A stretch of 64,000 nucleotides of DNA from an uncultured bacterium. Its GTDB lineage: Bacteria > Oederibacteriota > JAAXVQ01 > JAUVAV01. The notes under the pieces were generated by a model, which worked only from the letters and a program-made list of their open reading frames with translations, did not search any database and was not told where the DNA came from. The translations under genes were made by a program, and so were the position numbers. Below, in pieces: positions 21,201 through 59,963 of the stretch. The stretch spans positions 128,001 to 192,000 of the forward strand of contig CAVQBK010000006.1 in the NCBI GenBank assembly GCA_963710755.1. Direction: 5' to 3'. Each line of letters begins with the position of its first letter. The stretch's first letter is position 1.

Positions 21201-21266
21201 TAGGGCAGCGACGAAGGTCAGCATGAACATCATCAAAAACAGTTTTGTTTTTTTCATGGATGTCAT
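12255..21266 (-). CDS. 3003-aa giant surface protein: propeller-like head, two Thr/Pro stalks, Ig-like repeats, CBM-like domain, T9SS type-A-like CTD
   Basis: Signal peptide; ~14 YNG..WLIGG..GKL..YDG..F.DLS repeats; TPT repeats; AG..F.V.VTA.D.F.N....Y.GT..FT.SD Ig-like repeats; C-terminal VYPNPFNP...[14 protein letters not shown]. Confidence 0.85.
12527..14020 (-). repeat. Thr/Pro hexapeptide (TPTxTx) low-complexity coding repeat, distal stalk of the 3003-aa protein
   Basis: About 500 codons of TPT-x-T-x periodicity in the translation. Confidence 0.9.
17742..18975 (-). repeat. Thr/Pro hexapeptide coding repeat, proximal stalk of the 3003-aa protein
   Basis: About 410 codons of TPT-x-T-x periodicity. 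Confidence 0.9.
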
Positions 21267-26700: not shown

Positions 26701-28017
26701 CAGCACATTGGCCGTACCCCAGCCGGCGGCGGCCAGGTCACCGCTGATATCCTGGAAGGTCAGGCCATCGTAGGCATTCAAACGGCTATTGTTGCCCCCC
26801 AGAATGACATCACCGTTATCGTTATCAGCGGCAAAGTTGATGTTGTAGATACCCATATCTTTCAAATCAGAGGTAAAATCAGTAAAACTGGGCAGGTTCA
26901 ATGATCCGACACGCTTATTCAGACGAGCTTGTTCCCCGCCGATCAGCCATTCGTCCGAACCAGTGGTGCTGTTGTATTCAATACAGTAGATAGGATTACC
27001 AGACCCAAAGCCTGTGAGTTGCGATGATTGATTAAGCCAAGTACTACCACCGTCCCATGCATACAACACAGGAGCCAAGCCTGTCCCATTGCCGCCAATC
27101 AGCCAAAAACCGCTGGCCGTATTGTAGTCGATGGAAAAAATATTATTCATGCCCGTAACGTTGGCCGATAAATCCGTAAAAGTGGTTGTGCCGTTGAAGG
27201 AGACCAATTTCCCGCCACTGCCGCCAATCAACCATTTGGTGCCGTCCCAGGCGAGAGAACGTACAGTGTTGTTGCCAAAAGTGGTACGGAATTGGGCACT
27301 TAAATCATAAAAGACGCCGCCTTGGTATTTGCTCAAGCAGCCGCCATCGCCGCCCAGCAGCCAATAAGAACCGTTAAAAGCCACCGCATAACCATTGGTG
27401 GTGTTGGCAAAAAAACCTGCCCTGCCCGACATATCGGTAAAGGTAGAACCATCATAACTGTTCAGGCGCCCATTATTGCCCACTATCAGCCAAACCGAAT
27501 CCGTGGGGCTGCCGCCGCCATAACGCACGGCATTAATATCCTGACTCACCCAATTAATCAGCCCACCTGAAAGATCGGTAAAAGTTGTACCATCATAACT
27601 GTTTAGCTTTTTACCAGTGCCGCCGATCAGCCAGGTGCCACTCTGGTGCCAAATGGACATGATTGTGCTGGTACTATAATTGTCCAGGTCGGGAGAGAGA
27701 TTGGTCCAACTGGTCCCGTCATAGCTGTTGAGCTTGGCGCCGGCGCCGCCAATAAGCCACCGCCCGCCTGGTTGCCCATTGTGGTGAATGGCGCGAATCT
27801 GGCCACCCCAATTGATTAATCCGCCTGGTTGGGAGAAGCTGTAGGAAGAGGTCAGAAGCAGCTGCCGTTTGATGGTATTCCAATCGGCCGTGGTTGCCGG
27901 ATCTTTGTAAGTGGTGGTGGCAAAATTTTCAGTATAACTGCCCGCCCAGCTCAGCGCCGCCATCTGCCAAAGCCATAACGCGCTGAATAGAACCATCCCT
28001 CGTCTTTTCCAGTGCAT
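23797..28017 (-). CDS. 1406-aa surface protein: propeller-like head paralogous to the 3003-aa protein, Thr/Pro stalk, T9SS type-A-like CTD
   Basis: Shares [17 protein letters not shown]...[23 protein letters not shown] with the 3003-aa protein; C-terminal VYPNPYHP...[16 protein letters not shown]. Confidence 0.85.
24066..25713 (-). repeat. Thr/Pro hexapeptide coding repeat including a 132-bp tandem duplication
   Basis: TPT-x-T-x periodicity; identical 40-mer GTTGGCGTCCAGGTCGGTGTGACCGTGAACGTCGGTGAAT at 24959 and 25091. Confidence 0.9.
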
Positions 28018-28914: not shown

Positions 28915-30171
28915 TTATTCAAATTCAAGAGGCGACACCCCCAGGGGGAGCACACTTTGAATCGTCACATAGGTGAGCGGAGCTTGTTTTACATCGCCGG
29001 CGGCATCTTCAATGGTAAAGACCACTTTATATTTCCCATCGGGCATGGGATTTAAAGTATCCTCCATCCCATCCCAAACGATGTGTTCCGGCGGCGAGCC
29101 TTCACCGGAATATTTTTTGACCAAGGTATTGGATTCATTAAAAAGCTGGACCGACCAAACCCTAACCTGTAATTTTGTCTGGCAAAGTAGTTTGATAATA
29201 GTGACTTTATTGATGCCTACCGGAGAGAATTTATCCGGCTCCGGCCGTGCCTCCAAAATAAACCCTCCAAAGTAATAAGAAAGATCCACCCGGTGCAGCA
29301 GGCTTTCATCTTCCGTTAAAAAGCCGATGGCATAGTCCAATTGTATATCACTATAGCGGTAGCCCAAACCGCCGGTGAATTCCTGTAAATCATAGCCCGC
29401 CCGGACAAAGACATTGTGCATTGGCGAGCCTTCCAGTCCGAAACGAACCTTCAGCTGATCCTGATCCATGTTTTTAGCCAAATCCACATCCGCTTTGAGC
29501 CTGTCCCCCCACAACTTCGTGGCAATACCAAGCGTCATGTTCATGGGATAAACGTCGGCTACCTCTTTTAATTTAATAGAAGGCGCCAACAGATTTTGGA
29601 AACTCAAGCCCAGGTTAAGGAAAGGAAAGGGATGGTACATTAGGCCCAAATCAAAGCCGAAACCGGTAGCAGATAAGGACATCATGGTTTGATTAACGAT
29701 TTTCAAGGTCCCGCCACCGGCCAGCTGTGGCGTAATATCCATGCCGAAGGCGCCGAGAAAGGCGAATTGGTTGTTGGAGAAACTTTCAGTGACTTCATTA
29801 AATGTATCGCGGCCTTCGGCTGTGCCCTGATTCAGAAAAGTCAGTCCAACCCCCAGAGTGCCGACATAAGGTATAATATGAGAATATCCTAAATACTGGA
29901 AATTATCACCGTCCAGCAATGTCATGTATTGCAACAGCACTTGATTCTGCGAAACACTGGTCAAGCCGCCGGGATTCCAATAAGCAGCAGTAGCATCATC
30001 GGCAATACCTACAAAAGCGCGTCCCATGCCAATAGCCCTGGAACCGGCCCCGTAAGTTAAAAAAGTGCCCGCCTGACCGGCATCAGTATCAATGGCTAAA
30101 CCCTGGATGGGCATGCCGACCAGCACGGCTGCTAATAAAATAAATGTAATTTTTCGCATGTTTAAGGTCAT
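28915..30171 (-). CDS. PorV/PorQ-like beta-barrel with C-terminal FlgD-Ig-like domain (paralogue of 4964-6214)
   Basis: FLTYGAGSRAIGMGRAFVGIADDATAAYWNPGGL; PDKFSPVGI...IVWDG...MPDGKY; ATG overlaps the upstream stop (TAATG). Confidence 0.82.
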   Translation of the reverse strand: MTLNMRKITFILLAAVLVGMPIQGLAIDTDAGQAGTFLTYGAGSRAIGMGRAFVGIADDATAAYWNPGGLTSVSQNQVLLQYMTLLDGDNFQYLGYSHIIPYVGTLGVGLTFLNQGTAEGRDTFNEVTESFSNNQFAFLGAFGMDITPQLAGGGTLKIVNQTMMSLSATGFGFDLGLMYHPFPFLNLGLSFQNLLAPSIKLKEVADVYPMNMTLGIATKLWGDRLKADVDLAKNMDQDQLKVRFGLEGSPMHNVFVRAGYDLQEFTGGLGYRYSDIQLDYAIGFLTEDESLLHRVDLSYYFGGFILEARPEPDKFSPVGINKVTIIKLLCQTKLQVRVWSVQLFNESNTLVKKYSGEGSPPEHIVWDGMEDTLNPMPDGKYKVVFTIEDAAGDVKQAPLTYVTIQSVLPLGVSPLEFE

Positions 30172-31910
30172 TATTTTATTACCCCCACCCGTCGTTTAAA
30201 TTCCTGCGTTTTACCAGAACTCTGAGCCCTGACTTTGACCAGATAGATCCCGTTGGCCACGGTTCTACCCTCCCCATTCTTACCATCCCACATCCAGGCA
30301 GCGCCGCCCTTGGAGGTGGCGCTTAAGCTGATGGGATCAGTGCTGTCCTTGTCAAAGTTTTTAGCCACCACCACCCGGCCATAGGGATCGTAAATGCGTA
30401 GTTCCACATTACTGTTGTCTTCAAGATAGTAGTTGATGGAAGTGGTTTCATTGCGTCCAGGATCAAAAGGATTGGGGTAATTGACGATGGCCCCGGCCTC
30501 CACAGGCGCTACCGAAACCTTCACCGTCACACTCTGGTAAGCGTAAACCGTGGAGGAGACATTATCGAGCACGGCCACGTCCAACACCACCGCTTCATTG
30601 ATCGTGCCGGCTGTATAGGTACTTGTGGCCACACCTTCATTGGTTGAATTGTCACTGCCGGTGGTGGTGGCTGTCACCGACAAATAACCATTGGTGCTGG
30701 TGTTATGGAAGGTCACATGAAAATCATGGATATTGGAAGAAGTTTTATTGCCGTATTGGTCGTAAACCGTGGCTGAAACAATGGATTGATGATTGGACTG
30801 GACTTCGCTGGGGCTAAGGCTAAGCGACACACTGGCAGGAATGTTGGGGAGGATGGTTATGGGCGCTGAACTGACAGCATAAACGGTGGTACCATTAATG
30901 GTCAGTTGATGGGCTTGCAAATAAATCTGCGTAGCTTCCCGGAAATAGCGGTCATTAAAATATTTCACACCATTTTGCACAGTGAAATTAGCCAAATTAT
31001 CTCGATTGGGATTGTTGGCCAATTCTTCGTTGTTCGACAAATAAAATTTCTTAAATTCAAAGTAATCATTATTGTTGGTCAAAATGCCACCAGGCGCATT
31101 AGGATCAGAGGATGCTTTGATGGAAACGGATACATAAAAATCCTCTCCTGCATAGACCTGGGAAGGTGTGCTGATATGGGCAAACCCGGCAGTAGAGGAA
31201 AAGGAGGTGAGGTAGACAGGCGTGAAGGTCAGCCCTGGTGTGGACCCAAATCCTACGGTAACCAGGCTTCCTGTCAAGGAACCGGTCGTGGTTTCGATAG
31301 TGGAATAGCCTATCCCAGCATTTATAGGTATGGTAGAAGAAGGATGATAACTCATTCCTACTTCATTGGCCATTACCGTATCGGTGTAGGAATTAACTCG
31401 GTTATAATAAGCATCTGTGGCCAACAGGGTCACACCGTAATAAACGCCTTGAATGACGTCAGGATAATCACCACCTTGAACCACCGGAGTTACACCCGAA
31501 TTCACTCCTGGAGTATGAGTCTGTCCTGGAAGTATGATCAATAATTGACTGACAACATTAGCTGCAACCGCTACTTGCGTATTACCGTTTGCACTACCAT
31601 CGGTGCAGGAAATTTCATTGGCGCCTGCAGCTTTCAATCGAACAAAGCCCTTCCAAACACCGGCAGTAAAATTTTCGGATGTATTAGGGCTGATTGTATC
31701 CGGATAAGTATTATTGGTTAAATCAACAGTGCCAGAGAAGGTCGTGGACGGGATACCAGGAGCATCGTAGGCTGTAATAGTGATAGGGGTATATTCCCCA
31801 GCCGTAGGATTTGTTGCTGGATTAATTTCTAAAAGGAAATGAGATAAAGAATAACTTTGTAATGGAAGAAAGAATAGTGCGGAGATAATCAAGAAAGTTG
31901 CTTTTCTCAA
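30171..31910 (-). CDS. 579-aa secreted Ig-like protein with FlgD-type T9SS-like CTD
   Basis: TTG start after AAGGAGG; signal peptide; LLIILPGQTHTPG unit as in the 1901-aa protein; NYPNPFDPG...WDGKNGEGRTVANGIY. Confidence 0.8.
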   Translation of the reverse strand: MRKATFLIISALFFLPLQSYSLSHFLLEINPATNPTAGEYTPITITAYDAPGIPSTTFSGTVDLTNNTYPDTISPNTSENFTAGVWKGFVRLKAAGANEISCTDGSANGNTQVAVAANVVSQLLIILPGQTHTPGVNSGVTPVVQGGDYPDVIQGVYYGVTLLATDAYYNRVNSYTDTVMANEVGMSYHPSSTIPINAGIGYSTIETTTGSLTGSLVTVGFGSTPGLTFTPVYLTSFSSTAGFAHISTPSQVYAGEDFYVSVSIKASSDPNAPGGILTNNNDYFEFKKFYLSNNEELANNPNRDNLANFTVQNGVKYFNDRYFREATQIYLQAHQLTINGTTVYAVSSAPITILPNIPASVSLSLSPSEVQSNHQSIVSATVYDQYGNKTSSNIHDFHVTFHNTSTNGYLSVTATTTGSDNSTNEGVATSTYTAGTINEAVVLDVAVLDNVSSTVYAYQSVTVKVSVAPVEAGAIVNYPNPFDPGRNETTSINYYLEDNSNVELRIYDPYGRVVVAKNFDKDSTDPISLSATSKGGAAWMWDGKNGEGRTVANGIYLVKVRAQSSGKTQEFKRRVGVIK

Positions 31911-48155: not shown

Positions 48156-51100
48156 CTAATCCTTTTCCAACAACAATTTCGAATAGTAACTTCTAACCCT
48201 TTGAGAACGATGGTGCAAATCGTTTAAGAAATGATCCACACTGCCCTCATGGCCCAAGGTTCGCCTGGCCAATATCTTGAGCGCTTCCCCGGTGGCCGGC
48301 AGGGTATGCACCTGGCGGTCTTCGTAAATTTGAAGAAAATGTTCCAGGCGCCGCAAATAAACGTAATCCTCGCTGAGCCGGCTGTAGGCCGGCCCGTCGA
48401 TGAGGTGACTTTTAAATAATTTGGCCAATGCCTTCAGGGTATGGCCTTCAAAGATATGGGGGTGGTCATGGCCATAAATCAACTGCAGGCCCTGGATGAG
48501 GAATTCAATATCCCGAATGCCGCCCATGCCGCTTTTAATGTCCATGCTGTGCTGCCCGGCTTGATCGAGTTTTTTCAAGGCTTGGTTGCGCATGTGTTCG
48601 ATCGATGACTTCACTTGGCTGCGCTCAAAACCCCGGGTCAGCAGCCCCTGTACTTCTCCGATAAAGGCGGCGCCCAACTCCAGATTGCCGGCCACCGGCC
48701 GGATTTTTATCAGCGATTGCAGTTCACTCAATTCAGCCTGGTGGCGATAATACTCCACCATGGAGGTATAGGACGGTACCAAGGCACCGGCAATGCCATA
48801 AGGCCGCAGCCGGAAATCCACTCGATAGACCATACCCTCATCAGTATAAGAGGACAGGGCGGCACGACTGTTTTCAGTGACCAAGGTAAAAGGATCTTCA
48901 TTAAAAGCCTCTCCTGTATAAAGCAACCTGTCCACAACCCGGTCATCATAGAGGGCCACCAGATCAATATCGGAACTATAGTTAAGCTCCTGCCCGCCCA
49001 ACTTGCCAAAAGCCAACAGGCAATAGTGCTGGTGCGGGGCTGCCCACGGGACCGGCGGTAATTGATTGGCCTCGGTCAAGGCCTGCCAACTGTGCTGCAA
49101 AGCTGCTCCCACCAAAGCATCGGCCAAATTGGACAGCTCCAGGGTAATGTCTTCCAGAGAAGCTTTCAGACAAATATCACGAATGCCAATACGAACAAAT
49201 TCACGGCGCCGGAAAAGCCGTATCGCTTTCAGCCATTCTGCCTCGCGCAGTTGGGACTGGTTCTTAAGCTCGCCGTTGTAGTCTTCCCGGCTTTTCACAT
49301 TTCTGAGCAATTGCGGGTCTGTGGCCCATTCCAAATAATCAGGATGATGGATGAGGGCTTCGGCCAGAAACTGGCTGGTGGAAAAAATATCGAGCAATAT
49401 CTTTAGCCGCATGGGCTGGGCCAGCATGGCTTCAAAATGAGCCTTGGGTTGATCAAGCTGATGGACAAAGCGTTCCCAGTTGTTGAGGGCCATATCGGGA
49501 TCGGCTTTCTGACCGAGCATATCCACGGCCAGGACCGCCAGTTTGGCCATTTTTTCTTTTTGTAAAGGCTCGGCCCCGGCCAGATGACGCAAATTAACCT
49601 CCGCACGTTGAGGATTGGTAAACCCAGCCTGGGTGAGAATAACCATACGGTTCTCAACCGTCAGGGTTTCGGACAGGATCAAATCAGCCACATTGCCCGG
49701 CCGCTGCCCGGGCAAAGAATCACGGCCAAAATGTTTTTCCACAAAGGCGCGCACGGCCGCACTGTGCGTTTCAAAATCCACAAACAATTGTTTGGCCGGA
49801 TCCAGACCCTGCCTGACCGCGTACCCCAGCCGTCTGGCTAAATGGCTGTATTCCAAAGCTTCCGGTGCAGGCATAAATAAATCTTGGGCCGACCCACGCA
49901 GAATCCGCAGCCCGTTGATAAGATTACGAAAAAAGCCATAAGCACCAATCAATATTTCCGCCTCTTCATGGCTGATCACACCCACTTCATACAGACCCTT
50001 AAGCGCCAGCTGTATCCTGGGTGTTCGCAGCACCGGATAATCCCGGCCGTAGATAACCTGCAACAACTGGACATCGTATTCCAGATCCACCAAGGCTCCC
50101 GGGCTGAACTTGGCATTGATGCCGCCACCCCTGGTTTTTTCCTCAAATTGTTTCTGCCGCAGTTCACGGACCGCTTTTAGATCCAGGTCGCGGCTGGCAT
50201 AAATGAATTCATCGCGCAGGCGCTCCAGTTGGGCGCCCAGATCCGGATCTCCGGCTACAGGACGCATGCGCACCAAGGCCAGCTTCTCCACGGCATGGGC
50301 AGCACCGCCCTGACCAAAATAATCGCAGAACAGGGCCAAGCTTGACGCCAGCGGACCGTCACTGCCAAAGGGACGCAGCCTTAAATCCAGGTTAAAAATG
50401 CCTTCCCGTTTGGCCCGGATAAAGCGCACGGTTTCCTTGACCAGGAGATCAAAAAACTCGGCATTGGTGATGATCTTGCCGCCGTCGGTCTCTCCGGTAT
50501 CGCTATAGACCATCATGATCTCAATATCCGACGCATAGCCCAAGGCGGCGCCGCCAAGTTTGCCCAAACCCAACACCGCATAATTGGCGCGCAGTCCGGC
50601 TACAGTCCGGGGATGTCCGTACTGACCGGCCAAATGCAGGTACACCATTTGCGTGGTTTTTTTTAGGATGACTTCCGCTAAAAAGGTCAGTTGTTCACTA
50701 AGTTTTTTGAAATCCGATTGGGGACTGAGGATATGATCGAGGTCAAATAAAAATATTTCCCGATCCTTGAAGTCGTTAAGCACCTCCTGTTGTTCTTCAT
50801 AGCTGCCGGCTTTTTCCAGAGCCGCCTCCAAGCGATCGGGTAAGGTGGCCGTGGTCTCCACGATAGGCCGGCCTTCCACATGAGGACGTAACATGGGTAA
50901 AAGGGTTTCGTATTGCTGGCGGATCATGTCTTCCCAGAGATAATCACTGGTCCCCAAAAGTTTGGCCAGTTCCTGCATTAATTTGGGCGAACTCATAAAT
51001 TCCACCCATTTCCCCTGCTGATGTTTTTGAATGATGTCTTCCACCAGGTATTCAAAGCGGGACAAGGCGGCATAGGGATCAGGCGCCTGGCTTAAAAAAT

Positions 51101-51962
51101 AGGTAAACTGTTTGGTAAGCAGCACGGCCAGTTTGATTCTTTCCAAAACCTGGTCATCCTCGATTTTGTGACCACTTTGATCAACCACGTCAATCAGATC
51201 TTCAACCCGTTTGTCATTGGTGGTGATGGCCACATGCTCAATGGCCAGCTCGTGCAGGCTCAGAGCATTACTCAGGGAATATAAAAACACGGGCGTGTCT
51301 TCCGAGGTTACGGCCAAACGCGTAAAGTCTCCTGCCTGATTGTCGATCGCAATACTTACCGGCAGTAAGTGCAGACCGCCCCCGGCCTGCAAGGTGCGCA
51401 GCCGGTTGGCCACTTGTTCATTGACCAGATGTTTGGCTTTACTGCGGTCCTGATCACGGCCGCTTTCAAGCAGGATAATCACTTGTTCCATTTGCTGACG
51501 CAGACGATCGGACCATGTTTGCAAGGGTTGCTCAACAGCCAGTGTGCCGGTGAAATGATCGATAATTTTACGTCGCGCCCAGGGCGGCAGATTCATCTTA
51601 CCGGCATAGGTTTTGAATCGACGCCCCCCGGCCATGGACGGGGGTTGGCGTTTATAAGTGTGACTACCGCCGCTTAAAATCTCAAAGCCCATACCACTGA
51701 GCACCCCTGCAATTAGGGAGAAAACCGCCGGATAATCAAAAGAAAACAAGGTGACCGAAAGGCCCCCTTGCACCGAGGGTTGAACATCAATGGCCACGGG
51801 ATGGCTGGACGACAGATGAGCCATTAGATTCAAGTGATGGGCTATGGTGGTATGCCCATAACTGTTGAAATAGCGGTCGTCCAGACGGTCCAAGTGTTGA
51901 ACGATCCAGGCCTCGTTCAGATCAGGACAAAGGGCCTGCAGTTGAGCCAGCGTTGGTTTCAT
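48156..51962 (-). CDS. glnE: Bifunctional glutamine-synthetase adenylyltransferase/deadenylase with N-terminal ACT-like extension
   Basis: Two nucleotidyltransferase motifs (GKLGGAALGYASDIE; GKLGGQELNYSSDID), DLRLRP.G..G twice, IKSGMGGIRDIEF. Confidence 0.93.
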   Translation of the reverse strand: MKPTLAQLQALCPDLNEAWIVQHLDRLDDRYFNSYGHTTIAHHLNLMAHLSSSHPVAIDVQPSVQGGLSVTLFSFDYPAVFSLIAGVLSGMGFEILSGGSHTYKRQPPSMAGGRRFKTYAGKMNLPPWARRKIIDHFTGTLAVEQPLQTWSDRLRQQMEQVIILLESGRDQDRSKAKHLVNEQVANRLRTLQAGGGLHLLPVSIAIDNQAGDFTRLAVTSEDTPVFLYSLSNALSLHELAIEHVAITTNDKRVEDLIDVVDQSGHKIEDDQVLERIKLAVLLTKQFTYFLSQAPDPYAALSRFEYLVEDIIQKHQQGKWVEFMSSPKLMQELAKLLGTSDYLWEDMIRQQYETLLPMLRPHVEGRPIVETTATLPDRLEAALEKAGSYEEQQEVLNDFKDREIFLFDLDHILSPQSDFKKLSEQLTFLAEVILKKTTQMVYLHLAGQYGHPRTVAGLRANYAVLGLGKLGGAALGYASDIEIMMVYSDTGETDGGKIITNAEFFDLLVKETVRFIRAKREGIFNLDLRLRPFGSDGPLASSLALFCDYFGQGGAAHAVEKLALVRMRPVAGDPDLGAQLERLRDEFIYASRDLDLKAVRELRQKQFEEKTRGGGINAKFSPGALVDLEYDVQLLQVIYGRDYPVLRTPRIQLALKGLYEVGVISHEEAEILIGAYGFFRNLINGLRILRGSAQDLFMPAPEALEYSHLARRLGYAVRQGLDPAKQLFVDFETHSAAVRAFVEKHFGRDSLPGQRPGNVADLILSETLTVENRMVILTQAGFTNPQRAEVNLRHLAGAEPLQKEKMAKLAVLAVDMLGQKADPDMALNNWERFVHQLDQPKAHFEAMLAQPMRLKILLDIFSTSQFLAEALIHHPDYLEWATDPQLLRNVKSREDYNGELKNQSQLREAEWLKAIRLFRRREFVRIGIRDICLKASLEDITLELSNLADALVGAALQHSWQALTEANQLPPVPWAAPHQHYCLLAFGKLGGQELNYSSDIDLVALYDDRVVDRLLYTGEAFNEDPFTLVTENSRAALSSYTDEGMVYRVDFRLRPYGIAGALVPSYTSMVEYYRHQAELSELQSLIKIRPVAGNLELGAAFIGEVQGLLTRGFERSQVKSSIEHMRNQALKKLDQAGQHSMDIKSGMGGIRDIEFLIQGLQLIYGHDHPHIFEGHTLKALAKLFKSHLIDGPAYSRLSEDYVYLRRLEHFLQIYEDRQVHTLPATGEALKILARRTLGHEGSVDHFLNDLHHRSQRVRSYYSKLLLEKD

Positions 51963-52121: not shown

Positions 52122-55100
52122 ATGCAAAGCACTTTTCATAAAATAATAACTCTGCTGACAACCTTAACATTCCTATCCCCTATTTTGGGCTGGTCCTTTG
52201 AACCAGGTCATTATACCGTACACGCTGGAAGCTTGTTCGAATTTCAATGGCGAGGGAAAGCCATCACCTTGCCTCAACCATGGGGGGAAATTGAGAAAAG
52301 GTTTTCCGGCCAAGATAAGCTTATTATTCATATTCAGGATTTACACTGCAATCATGAAGTGCAAAAGAATATTGCGGAAATCATAGGCCATCTGGCCCAA
52401 AGTGTAGGGGCTAAAAAAGGTTCGCCCCTGCTGGTGGGAGAGGAAGGGTCCTTTAATACCGTTAATGTCGATCCCATCCGCAGCTTCCCCATCCCGGAAA
52501 TCCGCGAAGCTGTCAGTGATTATTTTGTTAAGCAAGGCAAGCTGACCGGTGCGGAATATTATGCCGCCACCGGTAAATATCCCGTCCGTCTGGAAGGCAT
52601 CGAAACGCCCAAGCTCTATAACGACAGCCTGGCTGCAGTCCGTTCTTTCCTGAATCCCGAGAGCCAAGGCTATATGATGGATTTACGGGAAATGTTGAAC
52701 AGCTTGAAACCAAGCATCTACAACCAGGAATTATCGGCCCTGGACCGGGCCCGCACCGACTACCGCGAGGGCAAGCTGGATGTTCTGGCCTATGCCACAC
52801 GATTGACGAAATTCGCCTATCGCATTGTAGGGGCACGGCATGCCGTGCCCCTACGGCAATACCCCAATCTGGAAAATTACCTGAATCTGGGCCATAAGCT
52901 GTTCGGTCCGGGTGTGGAGCCGGATCAATTATTCCATGAGATGGATGCATTGGATCAAGCTTTGCGGGAGAAGTTTTATACCAGCAACCTGCAGCATGAA
53001 TTGGACGCCCAAACCCATCGCCTGGATGTGATTGAAAAATTGTTGAACATCTCCGCCACGCCGGAGGAATTACAGGAATTCAGGAACGGGCGGGAACAAT
53101 TCCGGGTTGGGAAATTCGTGGAATTTTTTCAAACCGTAGGGAACGGTCCCCGGATGCTCGGGGCGCAGCGCGACCGTTCCCTAATTGATTCCGGCATCTA
53201 TGCCCTTGACCATTATCTCACCGAGGTGGAAATATTTTACCGCCTCTCCGACCTCCGCAGTCATTCTTTTGTCACCAATTTACTAAATAAAATGAATGCC
53301 GGCCACCAAACTGTGGCTGTCATCATCACCGGCGGTTTTCATACGGACGGCCTGCTGGCCGGGCTCCATAAACAAGGCTTCGAATGTCTTTCCATCAAGC
53401 CGCGCCTGACCAAACAGGATGTGGCCAATCCCTATTTCTCTATTTTACAAGGCAAGAAACTGCCCCTGGAGAAACTGCTGGCCAAAAATCAAACCCTGCT
53501 GGCGCCGAGGGTATGGATGGAAAATGGGAATAATGGATTTGGACAAGTAGCTACAATATTACAAGCAGCACTAGCAATGGCCGAAGGCATGCAAAAGCTG
53601 ACACGCCCCTATCAAAAGCGACTAAAGATTTGGACTAAAAAACATAATTTGAAAAACACATTGCAGTTTTGGACGCCTGACCAAATAAAAAAACTGGGAA
53701 TTAAGATGCCCAAAAATTGCACCCTATATATTGCACGGAGTTCGGCAAACAAAGTAAGACCCATAATTGTTGCTGAATACCATACCCTGGCCGGTGGGAT
53801 TAAAATTGCCAAGCAGGCTTCTTCTGCCAACGCCCGGAAAGCAAAACGTAACCTGGTAAAATTCAAAACCATGGCCATCACTGTTGCGGAGGACATGCCC
53901 CAAGCTTATTTGCTGTTGCGCAGCATGCAGCGCTATGAACGAGGTGTGACATTCTCCCCCTTGCTTGAGGCGCCGTTTGAGATGTTTAAAAGTGCGATTA
54001 AAAACCCAGTAGTCTATTTTACGCAATTCCATCAAGCTGATACAGGCAAGTGGTGGCTCAGAACATTAGGTCTATCTCTCATGATGAGTCTGGCCCTGGT
54101 GCTGGTTGTAGTCGGCGCCTTTATCATGGGAGGCAAGTCAATCCGTCCAGCCTCTCAAAGGCGCTCGGCCAAGCAGACATTGGACTGGATCGAACAGACT
54201 TTAAAAAACATTCATACTCTATGGAACCGTTATGTGCCTGCAGGCCAATTGCAAGAAAACCAAAATGCGACAATAATTTCAATTTCTCGCTTAGTCGATC
54301 AGGGGAAATTGGATGAAGCAAATGAAGAAATCAAGCTAGTGGTAGAGCAAGAGATGGATTTTGTCAAGTATTGTCATCCCGCCACATCAAGATACAAGCT
54401 TCCCATACCATGGTTGAAAGAATTCGGACTTAAGCATGTTTTTGATGAATCTCATCTTCGTAGGAACAATATCTATTATTCCGAAGACGAGCTGCGGAAA
54501 ATCCTGACGGCCAGTTTATATCTCGTTTCCGGTTATTATCTCAAAAGCGGGCCCGATATCTCGCACGTACAACCCAATAGTTATGGACAAATCACTCAGC
54601 CTATTTCTCTTAAGAATTTAAAAGAAGTTCAAGCGTTTCACACGGCTGCAAAGGCAACAAAGTATGTTGATCCAAGTCCAACTTCTGGCAAAGTTTATAT
54701 TGGTAAATTTCCGGTTGGTGGTATTGCGAATGAGTTGCTTGGCCAAGGTTGGTTTCACCTGTTGGGTTTTTCAACAGTCGATATGAAATATTTACCTGAT
54801 TCTTCATCTCTCATATCCGAATGGGTCGAAAACACCGTCACACTTCAAGCTTATATCACAAAGACTTTGGTAAATTCTTTTTTGTTCAAACCTGAAATAA
54901 TTGCGTCAAACCTACTGCCCGATTCATTCCGCAAGGTTATTGAGGAATCAAAACTGGCTGATGTTGTCATTCAGCTCACGGATGATCATCTTCAAAATAT
55001 ATTACTTAAAGTTGATCACCATGGGCAGTTGTTACCCTTCCCGCCAATTTTTTTAGACCGGGGAAATTGTTTTGGTTTTCATGTTGATCCGTTAACAGGA

Positions 55101-58100
55101 GAATCTCTGGTTCAAGGAACGTATAGAGGCGCCTTTGAAGAAGAAAGTCTAACCAGCGGTATGGATACTGGACATTACTTAAGAGGCGAGCAAACATTTC
55201 ATCTTTTTGCGAGACGGGAAAACATGCAGGAAATGGCGGATCGTATTGCCCAAGTTACAGAAGAGCAAATCGCCAATCTGATCGCCGGTGTCATGAGAGA
55301 GATGGGGACTGACTATCCCTCCGATCCACAGTTCCAGCCCGAAACACTAAAAACAAACTGGATGGATGCTATAGCCACTGTAAAAAAAGTATTTGATATC
55401 GACACAACACCAGTCGTCGAAAACCCTTACGGCAAAAAGTCAGTCACCTACACTCGAAATCATGCTCCCAAGCCTCCATCATCCGGTGCCTTCAAGTTCT
55501 GGGAAAAGGTCGGCCTATCCCAGGCCTGGGCCGGGAGGATTGAAGGGTTTACGGGCGCTCTGGGGTTCCTGCTCTGGCTCGTCCATGCCGGGCTTACCAC
55601 CGCCCCGCCGGACTGGCTTGCCTGGATGAATCCCTTGGCCTACCATTTGCTCATCCCTACGGCTGTGGTTTGGCTGGCTTTTTATCTGGGCCATCTTATC
55701 TTTGGCATTTACGGCGAGAACCCCGCTGACTTACAAGCAAGCGCCCTCAATGCCTGGAAAGCCACCAACCTGGCTGCCGGGGCTACTTTGCTCTTCCCTG
55801 CCGTGGTGGCTGGTCTCATGGCTTCGCAGTGGCTGGCACCGCTCGGACTAGCTCTAAGTGCGGCTATTATTCTCGCTGCCCTGGCCAGCGGCTGGCTGCA
55901 TGGAGAAGTTAATCAACCATCATTGCAACTCTCCCACTGGCTAGGTAATTATCATGAAAAACTTAAGAAATATTCTGTACTTCATAAAACTGTTCCCAAC
56001 ACGAATAGGAGGGTGTCCGGCTCTAATTCCGCTGAACCTCCGACTACGCTGGAGGCTATCTACAAGCGTATCTTAGCAGTAAACGTTAACATCTCCAAAG
56101 ACCAAAAAGAAAAAAAGGATAAATCGGCAATCCTCTGGTTGGCGTACAACAGGCTACGAGACGGTAAAATCATGAGTGCGTTGGCGAGTAAATTCAACCA
56201 AGATCCTAATCCTGACTACTTGATTGAATATATTGAGGATCAAGAGCATATCCAGGGCTATGTGGTATTCTCCCAGGACCAGCCAGGCCAGGCAAGGGAT
56301 ACCCGTTCAGTCTACGTAGAATTATTGGCTATCGACCCCCGTGATTTTGGCACAGGGGTTTCACAAAATTTAATGCAGCGAGTTATAGACTATGCAAGAC
56401 GTCATCATTTTAAAACGGTGATCGTACGCACCCTGAAGATAAATGAAAAACTTAATCGTTTTTATAAAGGACTTGACCAAAAAATATCTAATATCAGCGT
56501 AGACGGACCCCGGGATGCCTTTGACGACCCTAATGCAGTGCAATATACCTATTTTTTATCGGACAAAAGTAGTTCCGATACCTTGCATAGCAAATTACTA
56601 AGAAATAGGTCCGTGATAGTTTCAAAGGGACTGGCACCTGTTAAACTGGCTTTCAGCATAGCCATCTTACTTGCCCCCCTGGCCAGCGGCTGGCTGCATG
56701 GAAAATCGAATGAGCTGTTATCCTCCAAAAAAATGTTCCGATGGATAGCACCAATTGGCTTAAGGTCGACCCTAGAGGACTTGGCCATGTTAAGACCTAT
56801 TGCCGGATTAGCAAAGTTTTTGTCAGCATGGAAAAATCTTGTCTATTTATTTTTTCCGGAAACTATAAAAATCAAGAACCCTAAGCTTGTCGAGCTTTAT
56901 TTGAGATGCCTGCCTGAAGCCACACCCTATTCAGTACAATTTTCGGAAGATCATTCCTGGCAAGTGTCACTTTATAAAAGCATTGCTTCCTGGCGAACGG
57001 ACAGGCGGTATTTAGCTTTTAAGCGAGAAAGTGCCGGGGGTGTTTACTGGCATGACATCGACGAGCGTACAACATCAGCCAATCCGGAAAGGGCACGTTT
57101 AACAATTAAAAACAAACGGCGAGCACAAAGAGAGGCAGTTGATTTTTTTTCAAGAAAAGCCAAAAACACTATTTCGGAAAGAAATGAGCGAACAAGGGCG
57201 TTGGTGCTTGGACCAGGCCGCAGCCTGACTGAGCCGCTTGCATTATTAGAGGAATTTCCGGAAATAAGCGAAATGATTTTGATCGATTATGCTGACATCA
57301 ATATCCTTCCGCTTTATCAGGAATTAAGCGCGCTACCTGAAGAAACGCGCAGGAAATTCCGCCTTGAACATACACCATTTTTAAACAACGCTTTGCCCAC
57401 TGGATTTTTCGACTTGATCTATTCTCGGGACACCCTCCGTAGTGACATGTTTTATAATGAATTGCCCAGTGTTTGGCATGAAATCAACCGTTTGCTGAAA
57501 GAAGCGGGATTATTTTTCGGAACTGGAGATGCACCTGCGTTCGATAATTCACTTTTACCAAATTATGGTCTTAACGTTCTTTTTGAAGTTGAAGGATCAC
57601 CGTGGCTGGTGTTGGAGAAACCGAAGGGGAAAATCCCCAATACTGAAAAGCCGGTAACTGTCACCGAATCCCAACCATTAAATCTGCCAGGCGCGGCCGC
57701 GGCCGCGCTTTTGTCCGGATTGTTGGCCATGCTGGCGCTCTCAATCCCAGGATTGAATATGGCGCTAAGCGGATTTTTCTTGTGGAACCTGGTAAAAGCC
57801 GGATGGATGGCAGGGCAATTGGCAAAACGGCATGGCTGGAACATGTTCCGCCACCTTGGCCAGAATGTGGGCGCCTACAACCCGCTACTAAGCGTCATGG
57901 TGGATCCGGAACATCCCAGCGAGGCCATTATGGAAGCGCCGTTCTTTGTGCGAGCCCATGAGCAAGTCGCGCACCGCTGGGCGCAGATCATAGTGGATTG
58001 GATTCTGAAGCAGAGCAACGGCCAATCCTTGTCTCACTATGCCGAGGTCGCGCAAGCCGCCCAAGTCCAAGGCCAACGTGGGCCTTGGCAATATTACTTG

Positions 58101-59963
58101 TGGAATGTTTTGCTTGGCGAAATCCTGGCTCACGGCCTTGACAGCGTGGGGGCAATGGTTATGGGGTTGCGTGGGAAGATGCCAGACACCCTATTGACCC
58201 ATATCCCCCCTACTGATATTTCTTTTCATTTTTCCAAACTGCCCGCTCCTCCGGAAATAAAATCCGCTGTGGCTGTCCGTGTCGACGGCGCCAGGAAAGC
58301 CGCAGGCCGGGTGCTGCGGGTTGATCCGGCCCAGGCCGTGCTTGAGCTATGGCATGACCCCGGCATGCTCGGGTATGACTTCACTAAATATTCAGCCGGA
58401 ACTCCCTCACCTGGCTCGGAGGTTAGTTTTCGCCGTGCCTCCGGCAAGACCATTCAAGAGATCATGGAATCAGAACCTGAGGCGATTGCCGCCGTCAACG
58501 GTCAAACCGATAATATGTGGTGCACCAACAGCCTGATGGTCGTGAACGGCGAAGTCATCGAGCGTTCTGCTCCAGGGGTCAGAACTGATAGGTTCATTGA
58601 ACCTGAAGGTATTTTTTCATTTTTCGTCTTAGACCCGGGTCAAGTCGGGATTCAGGAAGTGGAATTCAAGAATGGACGGCCGGTTAAGCCACTGACATTT
58701 AGAAATGGTTTAGCTTGCCCGCCCTTGATTCAGAATCACGAGTTGCAAAAGAAGATCCGGCAAAGTCAACCCAACACGCGTCCCAATGAAGTGCTTTGGG
58801 ACCCAGAGAGAACCCAATTTTCCGCTTCTGCTATTGGCAAGGATGACCATGGCAATGTTTGCCTCATCACTCTGCTGGGTGATCCTGATCAGGGAAATGA
58901 AATCCGTTTACAAGATGTAATCGACTTGGGGCAACAAATGAACCTTGCGGACATGTCGATTTTAGGAGTCAGCGGTGATGCCCAGCAGTCCTTGGTTGGC
59001 GTGGAAAATCCTAACTTAATCGCCAGGGCCCGTGCCGGATCTTCCATGGCCGTTTATGTGAATGGCCGGCCATTGAGCAGTGCAATTTTGGTAAAAAGCA
59101 GGAGAACAATTTTTAACTCTGATCAATTGAGTAGAAAAAGCGAGGAAGGCCATGGGTCTAAAGCGAAAGTACCAACCGCCGAATCTGCTCAAGTTGCCAC
59201 CTACCGCATCGCCTTTGCCGATGGACAAGCCGAGATCACGGTGGAAAATGATCCCTTCCACGGCGCTTTGAATGCTCTGCTCCGCGAATCCATGCCGGGC
59301 TATTTTAGTCGGGACCGGGCCGAGGCTGCAGCTATTGGCCGCGAAGACCGGCCGCAGCAATTTGACCTCGCCTGGGATTCTCATTTGGGCGTGATTCATT
59401 TCCTTTTCAATTTGTTTTCGGGTAACTTTATAACGTCGGACCAAGAACCAACCATTCATTTGCCTGCCAACCTGGTTGACTGGTATACCCGGCCGGGATG
59501 GAAACACAGGTTAGCAAAAATCTTGCTCAAGGCGATTATTGCATTCAGCGGTTGGCAGCGGTATGAGGTCATGGCCCGCTGGAAGAGAATCATTAACCGC
59601 CACCAGCAAGCGGGCGATGACATGAAAATTGCGGCCCAACTCCTGAAGCGGCAGGTGTTCACTCATGTCGGCCTATCGACATCAGCGCTTTTGCTGGCAA
59701 GCTATGAAGCTTTGGTTGTATCCCCAACGGATGAAAAGGAATTGATGGCACGGCTGAAACTACTGCATGAGATGAAGCCGTTCGGTTTTAAGACCATTCG
59801 AGTCGCCCTACCCTCAGGTCAACTTCTGGCCTTGCCTGTGCCGGCAAAGGTTGATTTGATGCAGGCGATTATTCGACAATTAAGAAGCAGTGGAATAAAG
59901 GCCTTTGATCACCAGCCTGCACGGCCAATACGACGATTGCATCGTTTCCTGTCCTCGGCATAG
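52122..59963 (+). CDS. 2613-aa modular membrane-associated polyprotein (ChaN/TIKI-like, kinase-like, GNAT, SAM methyltransferase, phosphodiester glycosidase modules)
   Basis: Single open frame of 7.8 kb; signal peptide; motifs IQDLH/VGEEG/ITGGFH, DDHLQNILL/FLDRG, VELLAIDP...GTGV, LVLGPG/FDLIYS, AAVNG/SAIGKD; hydrophobic linkers between modules. Confidence 0.85.
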   Translation: MQSTFHKIITLLTTLTFLSPILGWSFEPGHYTVHAGSLFEFQWRGKAITLPQPWGEIEKRFSGQDKLIIHIQDLHCNHEVQKNIAEIIGHLAQSVGAKKGSPLLVGEEGSFNTVNVDPIRSFPIPEIREAVSDYFVKQGKLTGAEYYAATGKYPVRLEGIETPKLYNDSLAAVRSFLNPESQGYMMDLREMLNSLKPSIYNQELSALDRARTDYREGKLDVLAYATRLTKFAYRIVGARHAVPLRQYPNLENYLNLGHKLFGPGVEPDQLFHEMDALDQALREKFYTSNLQHELDAQTHRLDVIEKLLNISATPEELQEFRNGREQFRVGKFVEFFQTVGNGPRMLGAQRDRSLIDSGIYALDHYLTEVEIFYRLSDLRSHSFVTNLLNKMNAGHQTVAVIITGGFHTDGLLAGLHKQGFECLSIKPRLTKQDVANPYFSILQGKKLPLEKLLAKNQTLLAPRVWMENGNNGFGQVATILQAALAMAEGMQKLTRPYQKRLKIWTKKHNLKNTLQFWTPDQIKKLGIKMPKNCTLYIARSSANKVRPIIVAEYHTLAGGIKIAKQASSANARKAKRNLVKFKTMAITVAEDMPQAYLLLRSMQRYERGVTFSPLLEAPFEMFKSAIKNPVVYFTQFHQADTGKWWLRTLGLSLMMSLALVLVVVGAFIMGGKSIRPASQRRSAKQTLDWIEQTLKNIHTLWNRYVPAGQLQENQNATIISISRLVDQGKLDEANEEIKLVVEQEMDFVKYCHPATSRYKLPIPWLKEFGLKHVFDESHLRRNNIYYSEDELRKILTASLYLVSGYYLKSGPDISHVQPNSYGQITQPISLKNLKEVQAFHTAAKATKYVDPSPTSGKVYIGKFPVGGIANELLGQGWFHLLGFSTVDMKYLPDSSSLISEWVENTVTLQAYITKTLVNSFLFKPEIIASNLLPDSFRKVIEESKLADVVIQLTDDHLQNILLKVDHHGQLLPFPPIFLDRGNCFGFHVDPLTGESLVQGTYRGAFEEESLTSGMDTGHYLRGEQTFHLFARRENMQEMADRIAQVTEEQIANLIAGVMREMGTDYPSDPQFQPETLKTNWMDAIATVKKVFDIDTTPVVENPYGKKSVTYTRNHAPKPPSSGAFKFWEKVGLSQAWAGRIEGFTGALGFLLWLVHAGLTTAPPDWLAWMNPLAYHLLIPTAVVWLAFYLGHLIFGIYGENPADLQASALNAWKATNLAAGATLLFPAVVAGLMASQWLAPLGLALSAAIILAALASGWLHGEVNQPSLQLSHWLGNYHEKLKKYSVLHKTVPNTNRRVSGSNSAEPPTTLEAIYKRILAVNVNISKDQKEKKDKSAILWLAYNRLRDGKIMSALASKFNQDPNPDYLIEYIEDQEHIQGYVVFSQDQPGQARDTRSVYVELLAIDPRDFGTGVSQNLMQRVIDYARRHHFKTVIVRTLKINEKLNRFYKGLDQKISNISVDGPRDAFDDPNAVQYTYFLSDKSSSDTLHSKLLRNRSVIVSKGLAPVKLAFSIAILLAPLASGWLHGKSNELLSSKKMFRWIAPIGLRSTLEDLAMLRPIAGLAKFLSAWKNLVYLFFPETIKIKNPKLVELYLRCLPEATPYSVQFSEDHSWQVSLYKSIASWRTDRRYLAFKRESAGGVYWHDIDERTTSANPERARLTIKNKRRAQREAVDFFSRKAKNTISERNERTRALVLGPGRSLTEPLALLEEFPEISEMILIDYADINILPLYQELSALPEETRRKFRLEHTPFLNNALPTGFFDLIYSRDTLRSDMFYNELPSVWHEINRLLKEAGLFFGTGDAPAFDNSLLPNYGLNVLFEVEGSPWLVLEKPKGKIPNTEKPVTVTESQPLNLPGAAAAALLSGLLAMLALSIPGLNMALSGFFLWNLVKAGWMAGQLAKRHGWNMFRHLGQNVGAYNPLLSVMVDPEHPSEAIMEAPFFVRAHEQVAHRWAQIIVDWILKQSNGQSLSHYAEVAQAAQVQGQRGPWQYYLWNVLLGEILAHGLDSVGAMVMGLRGKMPDTLLTHIPPTDISFHFSKLPAPPEIKSAVAVRVDGARKAAGRVLRVDPAQAVLELWHDPGMLGYDFTKYSAGTPSPGSEVSFRRASGKTIQEIMESEPEAIAAVNGQTDNMWCTNSLMVVNGEVIERSAPGVRTDRFIEPEGIFSFFVLDPGQVGIQEVEFKNGRPVKPLTFRNGLACPPLIQNHELQKKIRQSQPNTRPNEVLWDPERTQFSASAIGKDDHGNVCLITLLGDPDQGNEIRLQDVIDLGQQMNLADMSILGVSGDAQQSLVGVENPNLIARARAGSSMAVYVNGRPLSSAILVKSRRTIFNSDQLSRKSEEGHGSKAKVPTAESAQVATYRIAFADGQAEITVENDPFHGALNALLRESMPGYFSRDRAEAAAIGREDRPQQFDLAWDSHLGVIHFLFNLFSGNFITSDQEPTIHLPANLVDWYTRPGWKHRLAKILLKAIIAFSGWQRYEVMARWKRIINRHQQAGDDMKIAAQLLKRQVFTHVGLSTSALLLASYEALVVSPTDEKELMARLKLLHEMKPFGFKTIRVALPSGQLLALPVPAKVDLMQAIIRQLRSSGIKAFDHQPARPIRRLHRFLSSA
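52827..52854. repeat. Perfect GTAG-type REP palindrome inside coding sequence
   Basis: GTAGGGGCACGGCATGCCGTGCCCCTAC, translated in frame as VGARHAVPL. Confidence 0.85.
55879..56702 (+). repeat. Exact 26-bp direct repeat bracketing the GNAT module
   Basis: CCCTGGCCAGCGGCTGGCTGCATGGA at 55879-55904 and 56677-56702, 798 bp (266 codons) apart. Confidence 0.9.

Follow-up and report, generated by a model that had tools for sequence, protein, structure and literature searches.

The 64,000-nucleotide stretch analysed here (the window; contig CAVQBK010000006.1 of assembly GCA_963710755.1, positions 128,001 to 192,000) comes from an uncultured bacterium of the Oederibacteriota lineage and carries, at 52122..59963 on the plus strand, a single uninterrupted open reading frame (ORF) of 2,613 amino acids plus stop. 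An initial annotation, made from the letters alone, had described the product as a giant membrane polyprotein in which unrelated enzyme modules are strung between transmembrane (TM) linkers, and the motifs it named lie where it placed them: DDHLQN at residue 954 (nt 54981), FLDRG at 977, LVLGPG at 1694 (nt 57201) and AHEQVAH at 1945. We found that the protein belongs to a large family with a common plan, in which a shared head is followed by a membrane span in most members and then by member-specific enzyme modules that alternate with conserved membrane connectors. Here the body runs from a kinase through a four-span connector, a GNAT acetyltransferase, a duplicated span, a methyltransferase-like module, a hairpin-plus-His/Glu module and a NAGPA-like region to a C-terminal domain. 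The features of the gene are as follows.

52122..59963, plus strand: whole ORF, from the ORF reading of the window, 2,613 codons
52122..52199, plus strand: N-terminal hydrophobic, signal-peptide-like segment, residues 1-26 (hydrophobic over 8-26 by hydropathy)
52218..53501, plus strand: family-defining head, residues 33-460, delimited by alignment, structural model, fold matches and conservation
53502..54062, plus strand: post-head region, residues 461-647, of lower model confidence and weakly similar to one paralogue
54063..54134, plus strand: first TM span (TM1), residues 648-671, hydropathy 2.65, with two Lys/Arg before it and five after
54138..55511, plus strand: helical region and atypical protein-kinase-like domain, residues 673-1130, core at about 822-1094
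55545..55904, plus strand: four-span membrane block, residues 1142-1261, ending in LASGWLHG; the module also occurs in other giant ORFs
55818..55907, plus strand: direct repeat, copy 1, at the end of the four-span block
56193..56468, plus strand: GNAT acetyltransferase, residues 1358-1449 (PF00583, E 2.6e-8)
56616..56705, plus strand: direct repeat, copy 2, encoding the TM span 1509-1527
57042..57614, plus strand: probable class I S-adenosylmethionine (SAM) methyltransferase-like module, residues ~1641-1831 (sub-threshold PF08241 match and motifs)
57615..58163, plus strand: recurrent hairpin module, residues 1832-2014, comprising a two-span hairpin and a small domain and defined by alignment
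58152..59126, plus strand: candidate NAGPA-like (phosphodiester glycosidase-like) region, residues 2011-2335, a language-model lead
59118..59960, plus strand: C-terminal family domain, residues 2333-2613, defined by sequence matches

The large N-terminal domain noted initially proved to be the element that defines the family. This head, which takes up the first 460-510 residues, starts 31 ORFs of 619-9,465 amino acids in the 3.44-Mb genome (phmmer, E ≤ 2.7e-47), and together these ORFs sum to 80,562 amino acids, equivalent to 7.0% of the genome DNA. A head profile found matches in 10/10 genomes of the same family and 4/4 of the same order (6-44 matches per genome, in head-bearing frames of up to 13,678 amino acids), and at E ≤ 1e-10 it found none in 16 genomes belonging to the phylum's other families. 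In species genomes, 278 of the 306 candidate head loci were confirmed, and those listed belong to metagenome-assembled genomes (MAGs) that carry the label FCPU426, Firestonebacteria or Goldiibacteriota, or just ‘uncultured bacterium’. A profile search of longer proteins matched 134 (E ≤ 1e-5), with very varied cargo; more distant ones among them come from MAGs labelled Omnitrophica and Elusimicrobia/Endomicrobia, in line with the link to Omnitrophota and Elusimicrobiota that had been drawn at the outset.

In every mapped database homologue the part held in common is the N-terminal head; one Omnitrophica-labelled protein (P0084), for example, joins it to a starch-synthase domain. Within the genome, the identifiable Pfam cargo of the paralogues comprises PPDK_N (in four), PEP-utilizers, HD_3 plus NUDIX, HD_5, GH77, glucoamylase, alpha-amylase, TreT/GT1, NTP_transferase, low-molecular-weight phosphatase (LMWPc), GGDEF, cytidylate kinase and transglutaminase, and 16/31 paralogues have no Pfam match at E ≤ 1e-5. 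A segment beyond the head is shared by only 17 of the 465 possible paralogue pairs, and at differing positions, which bears out the earlier description of a polymorphic, cassette-built family.

Three further observations concern the family at large. Alpha-glucan and phosphotransfer enzymes (PPDK_N, GH77, alpha-amylase, TreT, glucoamylase, starch synthase and glycogen phosphorylase) are over-represented in the identifiable cargo, and an Omnitrophota preprint describes a sugar-metabolism module with a like theme (10.64898/2026.06.07.730766). Family members also occur as same-strand tandem pairs (C1:318109-328389, C4:49365-63483, C13:510158-530593 and C13:157631-175121), an arrangement that could favour recombination between members. 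Finally, two small contigs, C11 (5736-7595) and C12 (1-7148), carry copies of the member C4:146591-150532, and all three have the same 143-residue upstream ORF. Beyond the head, the C11 copy is 100% identical to that member over 63 residues, the C12 copy is 62% identical to it over 821, and the two small-contig copies are 87.5% identical to each other over 40. Family genes seem to break the assembly, so the true number of members may differ from 31 by one or two.

The head was modelled with AlphaFold2 (AF2) from the 31 paralogues. The model has a predicted local distance difference test score (pLDDT) of 74.5 and is good over residues 40-435; 10-residue blocks across residues 41-430 mostly reach 83-96, with three blocks lower. 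It shows a TIKI/EreA/ChaN-like alpha/beta core split by a helical insert of about 210 residues (~165-395). In a fold search by an alignment independent of Foldseek, the top five of 48,161 chains all belong to the TIKI superfamily (ChaN, Z 9.5; HopBA1, 9.3; EreC, 8.9; 2qgm, 8.7; 2rad, 8.2), with PMT at 6.6 and RRSP at 6.0, and the top alignments cover 165-196 residues spanning model residues 23-460. A second structural comparison returned EreC (Z 9.0) and Bcr135 (Z 8.2).

Conservation points the same way. Residues D73, H75, Q81, E108, R379, G404, G405 and H407 are near-invariant, forming a D-x-H, E, R, GG-x-H pattern, and of 143 head-bearing proteins 133 retain D73, 141 H75, 141 E108, 138 R379 and 139 H407. 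The paper on the RRSP structure gives E3900, H3902, E3930, R4001 and H4030 as the TIKI-superfamily set of two His and two Glu plus a basic residue, and names PMT, HopBA1, Bcr135 and ChaN as fold relatives (PMC6254334). D73, H75, E108, R379 and H407 match that set in order and spacing, as judged without superposition and with Asp as the first acidic residue. The head resembles the TIKI superfamily (EreC 6xcq/6xcs, Bcr135 3b55/2rad, Bcr136 2qgm, ChaN 2g5g, HopBA1 5t09 and RRSP 5w6l) in its modelled parallel-sheet alpha/beta core and, as far as order and spacing go, in its acidic-x-His, Glu, Arg, His series; it differs in having no Pfam or PDB sequence match, a core split by an insert, an Asp at the first acidic position and a fusion to a giant multi-pass body. 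As the Z values alone are middling, it is the residue pattern across 143 proteins that strengthens the case, and we consider that the head is probably a TIKI/EreA/ChaN-like hydrolase, active and interrupted by its helical insert of some 210 residues.

The first enzyme module of the body had been likened to HipA and PI3/PI4 kinases, and both fold and motif residues agree with that likeness. A Foldseek search with its AF2 model (pLDDT 78.5) gave 323 matches at E ≤ 0.001, and the 50 best are all PI3K, PI4K or PIKK proteins (probability 1.00); by VIA alignment, the 50 matches listed are all kinases, including CtkA (Z 14.4), actin-fragmin kinase (12.9), CotH (12.6), PI4KIIalpha (12.3), Fam20 (11.6) and HipA (11.1). 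Language-model neighbours include LepB_N and PI3_PI4_kinase. Across ten aligned sequences (the module and nine relatives), 90% or more retain K862, D954, N959 and D979, and by the known kinase motifs we take these to be the catalytic Lys, the D-x-x-x-x-N pair and the metal-binding Asp. At the level of predicted fold and of motif, therefore, the module is confirmed as a bilobal atypical protein-kinase fold with an intact-looking catalytic set. It has the fold and the Lys/D-x-x-x-x-N/Asp pattern of PI3K/PI4K, PI4KIIalpha, CtkA, CotH, Fam20, HipA, MavQ and LepB_N, and it departs from these atypical kinases in that no Pfam kinase family (PI3_PI4_kinase and HipA_C included) matches the protein at E ≤ 1, in that relatives are few and in that a lipid, sugar or protein substrate class is not distinguishable. 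Among 1.84 billion representative proteins, only ten relatives were found at E ≤ 0.001; five of the ten are 1,547-7,439 residues long, and three have the same head.

The acetyltransferase is the most securely assigned part by sequence, being the only one of six families returned by a Pfam scan of the whole protein (E ≤ 1) to exceed its cut-off (PF00583, 34.6 bits versus 20.7), and the three PDB sequence matches of the whole protein are all GNATs. R-D-F-G-T-G at residue 1407 fits R/Q-x-x-G-x-G/A, the acetyl-CoA pyrophosphate-binding motif. The best NCBIfam match over this region is a WecD-type acyltransferase (E 3.2e-4), with nothing above the cut-offs of that collection, and the nearest curated model is of the type that acetylates nucleotide amino sugars. 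A weak search, which needs shared words, found no relatives of residues 1270-1850 (GNAT plus methyltransferase-like module) among proteins of 1,437-4,573 amino acids. In the methyltransferase-like module, LVLGPG at 1694 and LIDYA at 1720 loosely fit the pattern of a Gly-rich motif I and an acidic residue at the end of strand 2, LVLGPG presumably being the former and LIDYA presumably carrying the latter; FDLIYS lies at 1763.

What had first appeared as a TM linker containing HEQVAH is present, and turned out to be a conserved module, seen again in relatives. It includes a stretch of 42 residues without charge (1850-1891), as would suit a hairpin, and many giant ORFs across the order contain it, at up to 54% identity and with as many as three copies in one ORF. 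All 16 aligned copies keep K1892, H1946, H1951, W1953, E2000 and D2007, and H2004 is near-invariant, a pattern that suggests a metal or catalytic site; a profile of the module against PDB sequences returned noise and no relative. We rejected a zincin (HExxH) reading of AHEQVAH, whose two His are spaced as H-x4-H and whose acidic position is taken by Asp in 7/16 copies; Asp after H1946 would be unusual for a zincin-type catalytic Glu. The NAGPA-like region is a candidate whose sole support comes from the ESM Atlas, where 27 of the 30 clusters nearest to it belong to PF09992 (score 0.94). A six-frame search of the genome with PF09992 (E ≤ 10) gave one match, at another place, C6:55534-55770, which lies outside the window on the minus strand in a 495-residue frame and is below cut-off (E 0.125, 13.5 bits). 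The C-terminal domain is shared with the paralogue C5:106014-114461, the database protein P0003 and ORFs in two relatives.

The membrane segments foreseen initially are present. A hydrophobic segment at residues 8-26 is present, with small residues (G/S) that we take, applying the -3/-1 rule by eye, to precede a cleavage site before FEPG; it is signal-peptide-like by inspection, and 28/31 paralogues have an N-terminal hydrophobic segment. The strong span expected after the head lies at 648-671, the multi-span linker at 1142-1261 and the span after the GNAT at 1509-1527, and this last helix is a duplicate of the final one in the four-span block. From the bias in Lys and Arg at TM1, the ATP- and acetyl-CoA-dependent modules (kinase and GNAT), and probably the SAM-dependent one, would lie on the cytoplasmic side of the producing cell.

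The cassette structure is visible at the DNA level. The impression that the kinase, GNAT and methyltransferase parts are more AT-rich was borne out at third codon positions, where the G+C fraction (GC3) is 0.395 in the kinase-like part, 0.430 in the GNAT region and 0.410 in the methyltransferase-like part, against 0.568 in the head, 0.652 in the four-span block, 0.656 in the hairpin, 0.528 in the NAGPA-like region and 0.544 in the C-terminal domain. Genome ORFs have a mean GC3 of 0.5675 (s.d. 0.068), and only 3.3% of 10,868 non-family 150-codon windows fall at or below 0.40. Low GC3 goes with the rare, ‘private’ modules, and genome-typical values with the parts shared across the family. GC3 ranges over 0.32 within this gene versus 0.11 in housekeeping giants such as GOGAT, and several further giant genes of the genome have a range as large or larger. 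Two giants that lack the head, C1:80-20494 (6,805 amino acids) and C4:21455-45832 (8,126 amino acids), have still wider GC3 ranges (0.56 and 0.38), so compositional patchwork is a general feature of the giant genes in this genome.

Searching the order's 14 other genomes with residues 660-2613 gave no collinear orthologue, which, with the compositional mosaic, speaks for a variable rather than a fixed architecture. The hairpin (1832-2014), the four-span block (1120-1265) and the C-terminal domain (2333-2612) recur in giant ORFs of those genomes, and the kinase, GNAT, methyltransferase-like and NAGPA-like parts were not found there. In the relatives' ORFs G013:C289, G013:C188 and G001:C341, the C-terminal domain comes straight after the four-span block, and in the 2,613-residue protein the two are separated by about 1,070 residues. 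A protein from another source (P0002) aligns collinearly with residues 7-1276 at 39% identity; beyond that it lacks everything up to its own C-terminus. A block of about 1,070 residues appears to have entered the present gene where the four-span connector met the C-terminal domain.

One joint is still recognizable. A 90-nt direct repeat (71% nucleotide identity with a 26-nt perfect core, copies 798 nt apart and in frame) encodes the LASGWLHG helix both before and after the GNAT, so that this cassette is bracketed by it. No internal protein repeats were found, and the TM joint is the only notable DNA repeat. The repeat-bracketed GNAT is the clearest trace of module insertion at connector sequences; the cassette may retain the duplicated joint from its insertion, and the family may have evolved by gain and loss of cassettes at such sequences. 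The initial annotation went further and proposed capture of foreign enzyme domains, a claim that was not supported: no donor was found. Given that the kinase has few relatives and that several of these are giant or head-bearing, modules may circulate within the pool of giant proteins rather than come from ordinary enzymes.

The gene lies among nitrogen-assimilation genes: glnE (divergent; window positions 48156-51962, head-to-head with the giant gene in the source genome), glnA (convergent), a GAF/sigma-54 activator, GOGAT and carbamoyl-phosphate synthase (CPSase). The 159 nt upstream of the ORF are AT-rich with one promoter-like site, and such sites are not commoner in the region than in shuffled sequences. 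In four of five relatives (G003:C15, G005:C39, G007:C1 and G011:C26), the next gene after glnE, in the same orientation, is a head-bearing giant of 1,927 to 12,550 amino acids; in the fifth, the region 3' of glnE reaches the contig edge and holds no ORF of at least 300 amino acids. The heads of these four giants are nearest to the paralogue C1:318109-321579, and the giants have nothing in common with the 2,613-residue protein beyond the head, so they are not its orthologues; their closeness to another paralogue makes a rearrangement at the glnE locus likely.

Elsewhere in the window there is a second set of very large genes, all on the minus strand, at 12255-21266, 23797-28017, 6294-11999 and 30171-31910 (3,003, 1,406, 1,901 and 579 amino acids, respectively), which encode Big_1/invasin, CHU_C (type IX secretion sorting) or FlgD_ig domains and have an OmpA-like gene and a FadL/TraF-like gene beside them. 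GC skew is unusually strong at 12-14 kb (0.38) and 24-26 kb (0.45) of the window.

On balance, we favour the view that the 2,613-residue protein belongs to a lineage-specific, hyper-diversified family of Sec-targeted, multi-pass membrane, multi-enzyme proteins with a TIKI-like head, which evolve by cassette exchange and serve in tailoring the cell envelope. The N-terminal segment would act as a Sec signal or anchor and place the head in the periplasm, and TM1 would bring the chain back into the cytoplasm, where the kinase could reach ATP. After four further spans, the GNAT would sit on the cytoplasmic face with access to acetyl-CoA. The result would be a membrane-tethered tailoring set, with phosphorylation, acetylation and possibly methylation inside and the hydrolytic head, possibly together with a glycosidase, outside. 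Envelope glycans or lipids would be the most plausible targets, a suggestion that we hold loosely.

Several results weigh against this view. For the head, Foldseek gave no match at E ≤ 0.001 (best EreC, E 0.017, then Bcr135), Z values of 8-9.5 are middling and barely above the background quoted by the tool, and an unrelated complex IV subunit reached Z 8.3 in the second structural comparison. No TraB, Cofac_haem_bdg or Erythro_esteras match was found in the 31 heads (Pfam E ≤ 1), which returned no consistent family, the head profile against PDB sequences gave only noise, and the equivalence of the catalytic residues with those of TIKI proteins is drawn from order and spacing, not from superposition. 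As for topology, five of the 31 paralogues have no strong span soon after the head, and across the family the charge bias at the first span is weak: in 16 single-span paralogues the Lys/Arg count after that span is higher in eight, lower in three and equal in five. Counting spans after the signal segment (1+4+1+2) also places the methyltransferase-like module outside, without SAM, so that either a span is mis-called or the module does not work as a methyltransferase. The methyltransferase and NAGPA assignments are themselves unproven. PF08241 reaches 14.0 bits (E 0.081), short of its 21.2-bit cut-off, and only profile positions 45-94, in the C-terminal half, are matched, leaving the class I methyltransferase of the initial annotation with a weak match and loosely fitting motifs; the NAGPA-like call, which stands as a language-model lead, is without a hidden Markov model match, PF09992 being absent from the protein at Pfam E ≤ 1. 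Finally, the envelope-tailoring role is deduced solely from the kinds of enzyme present.

Other explanations have to be set against this one. The layout of an outside head, a TM span and inside modules would also suit transmembrane signalling, in which the periplasmic head senses or processes a ligand and the kinase, GNAT and methyltransferase are the outputs of a one-component-like receptor set. GGDEF, HD_5, Pkinase, HATPase_c, receiver, sigma-70 and HTH domains occur in the cargo of the family and its homologues, and the four-helix-bundle-like insert of the head weakly resembles the sensor bundles of TorS, PilJ and McpZ (Z 4.3-6.8), although helical-bundle scores of that size are non-specific by the tool's own note. 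We nevertheless think signalling unlikely, since a sensor would be expected to vary, whereas the head is the most conserved part and has catalytic-looking residues, and much of the cargo is plainly metabolic (GH77, amylase, TreT, FBPase and cytidylate kinase). Somewhat harder to credit is a polyprotein, an operon-like ORF whose chain is cut into separate enzymes by the head, the His/Glu module or host proteases. PMC6254334 includes proteases such as RRSP in the TIKI superfamily, cleavage of Omnitrophota giants is raised as a possibility in two preprints (10.1101/2023.11.21.568195 and 10.64898/2026.06.07.730766), and the His/Glu module, present up to three times per giant ORF, could bind metal through its invariant H1946, H1951, E2000 and D2007 and near-invariant H2004. 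Yet the topology proposed above sets the head across the membrane from most modules, and the His/Glu module has both the Asp after H1946 in 7/16 copies and no sequence relative in the PDB.

The initial annotation had leaned towards a polymorphic multi-effector scaffold, MARTX-like in logic, and a secreted or contact-dependent protein of that kind would use its TM segments as a translocation device and act in another cell. The extreme diversification and turnover of the paralogues recall conflict systems, the cofactors of the modules would be present in a target-cell cytoplasm, the fold relatives of the kinase include the effectors or toxins CtkA, HipA and MavQ, the head has the fold class of the effectors RRSP and HopBA1, and predatory roles for Omnitrophota giants are suggested by the authors of both preprints and of PMC12419801. 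We regard this as improbable all the same, because RTX repeats, the C80 protease and known toxin or trafficking domains are absent at Pfam E ≤ 1, no type I or other secretion genes adjoin the gene, which sits among nitrogen-assimilation genes, no recurrent immunity-like or partner gene accompanies the 31 paralogues (other family members aside), and the family cargo consists largely of housekeeping-type carbohydrate and nucleotide enzymes. An artefact, whether a chimeric assembly or a decaying pseudogene open by chance, would account for the sharp GC3 steps at module boundaries and would fit the disruption of assemblies by family genes elsewhere, C11 and C12 carrying near-identical N-terminal copies; we find it scarcely credible. 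The frame is open over 2,613 codons with intact catalytic residues in head, kinase and GNAT, P0002 from its other source is collinear across the head, TM1, the kinase and the four-span block, and the mosaic is equalled in other giant genes of the genome. Contigs from public runs that are 100% identical to the window also cross boundaries near 54100, 55905 and 57615. These runs, with no RNA data set listed among them, are four soil and salt-marsh metagenomes with short contigs only, in which the organism is rare and the gene partly uncovered; as the best-matching run may be the source sample, the bridging contigs speak weakly against a chimeric assembly.

Comparison with known systems places the multi-enzyme membrane family more precisely. 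With MARTX toxins it shares very large size, serial unrelated enzyme modules and a head of the same fold class as the effector RRSP (Z 6.0). Membership nevertheless fails, since neither HemolysinCabind nor any other repeat family was found at Pfam E ≤ 1, Peptidase C80 was not among the families at that threshold and there are no type I secretion genes beside the gene; the protein, moreover, has a Sec-type N-terminus and internal TM spans. Polymorphic toxin systems, reportedly described by Zhang et al. in 2012, likewise combine a conserved N-terminus with recombining variable modules and many paralogues. Here, in contrast, none of the variable parts is a known toxin domain, and they lie inside the chain as well as at its end, with no Pfam toxin family in the protein and no recurrent immunity-like neighbour.

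The closest parallel is provided by the giant proteins of Omnitrophota. According to one preprint, ‘multi-enzyme metabolic cluster’ giants (class 1) mostly have a signal peptide and TM helices, with PF08241, PF00583, HD, NUDIX and starch synthase common (10.64898/2026.06.07.730766), and that of West-Roberts et al. 2023 describes TM-rich Omnitrophota giants with glycolytic, glycosyltransferase (GT) and PPDK domains (10.1101/2023.11.21.568195). Both concern giants of at least 10,000 and up to 147,155 amino acids. The likeness lies in unrelated enzyme domains placed between TM helices in one ORF, often with a signal peptide and mostly unique in sequence, and the domains include methyltransferase, GNAT, HD, NUDIX, starch synthase, GT1, PPDK and glycolytic enzymes. 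In contrast, the protein described here has 2,613 residues and comes from another lineage, its closest named MAGs being FCPU426 and Firestonebacteria, and by Pfam it has neither the C39/S8 peptidases found near the N-termini of the Omnitrophota giants nor their SecA-like domains. The texts of the two preprints, supplements excluded, contain no mention that we found of a TIKI/EreA/ChaN/TraB-like head or of Firestonebacteria, and within the same limits a literature search turned up no earlier account of this kind of head, nor any of giant genes from FCPU426 or Firestonebacteria. The kind of protein is thus already known in Omnitrophota; what is new is a small member in another lineage, a newly recognized common head and a visible cassette joint.

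A bolder proposal, which we regard as doubtful, is that the head and connectors form a dedicated platform for building membrane-threaded multi-enzyme chains, common to FCPU426/Firestonebacteria, Omnitrophota and Elusimicrobiota. Cassettes would be swapped at TM-coding joints such as LASGWLHG, in the manner of integrons or polymorphic toxins but inside single ORFs, and the head would be both a mark of common ancestry and an active periplasmic hydrolase needed by every member.

Giant genes of uncultured PVC-related phyla have been described in the two preprints as mostly one-off sequences without a common denominator. The apparently catalytic shared head links giants of at least three candidate lineages and could be used to find and classify them, and the protein described here offers a tractable small member, of 2.6 thousand amino acids, with intact-looking catalytic sites. 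Its repeat-bracketed cassette, set in a GC3 mosaic, is a DNA-level trace of how giant genes are assembled. With 7% of a 3.4-Mb genome given over to the family, its role must matter to the organism.

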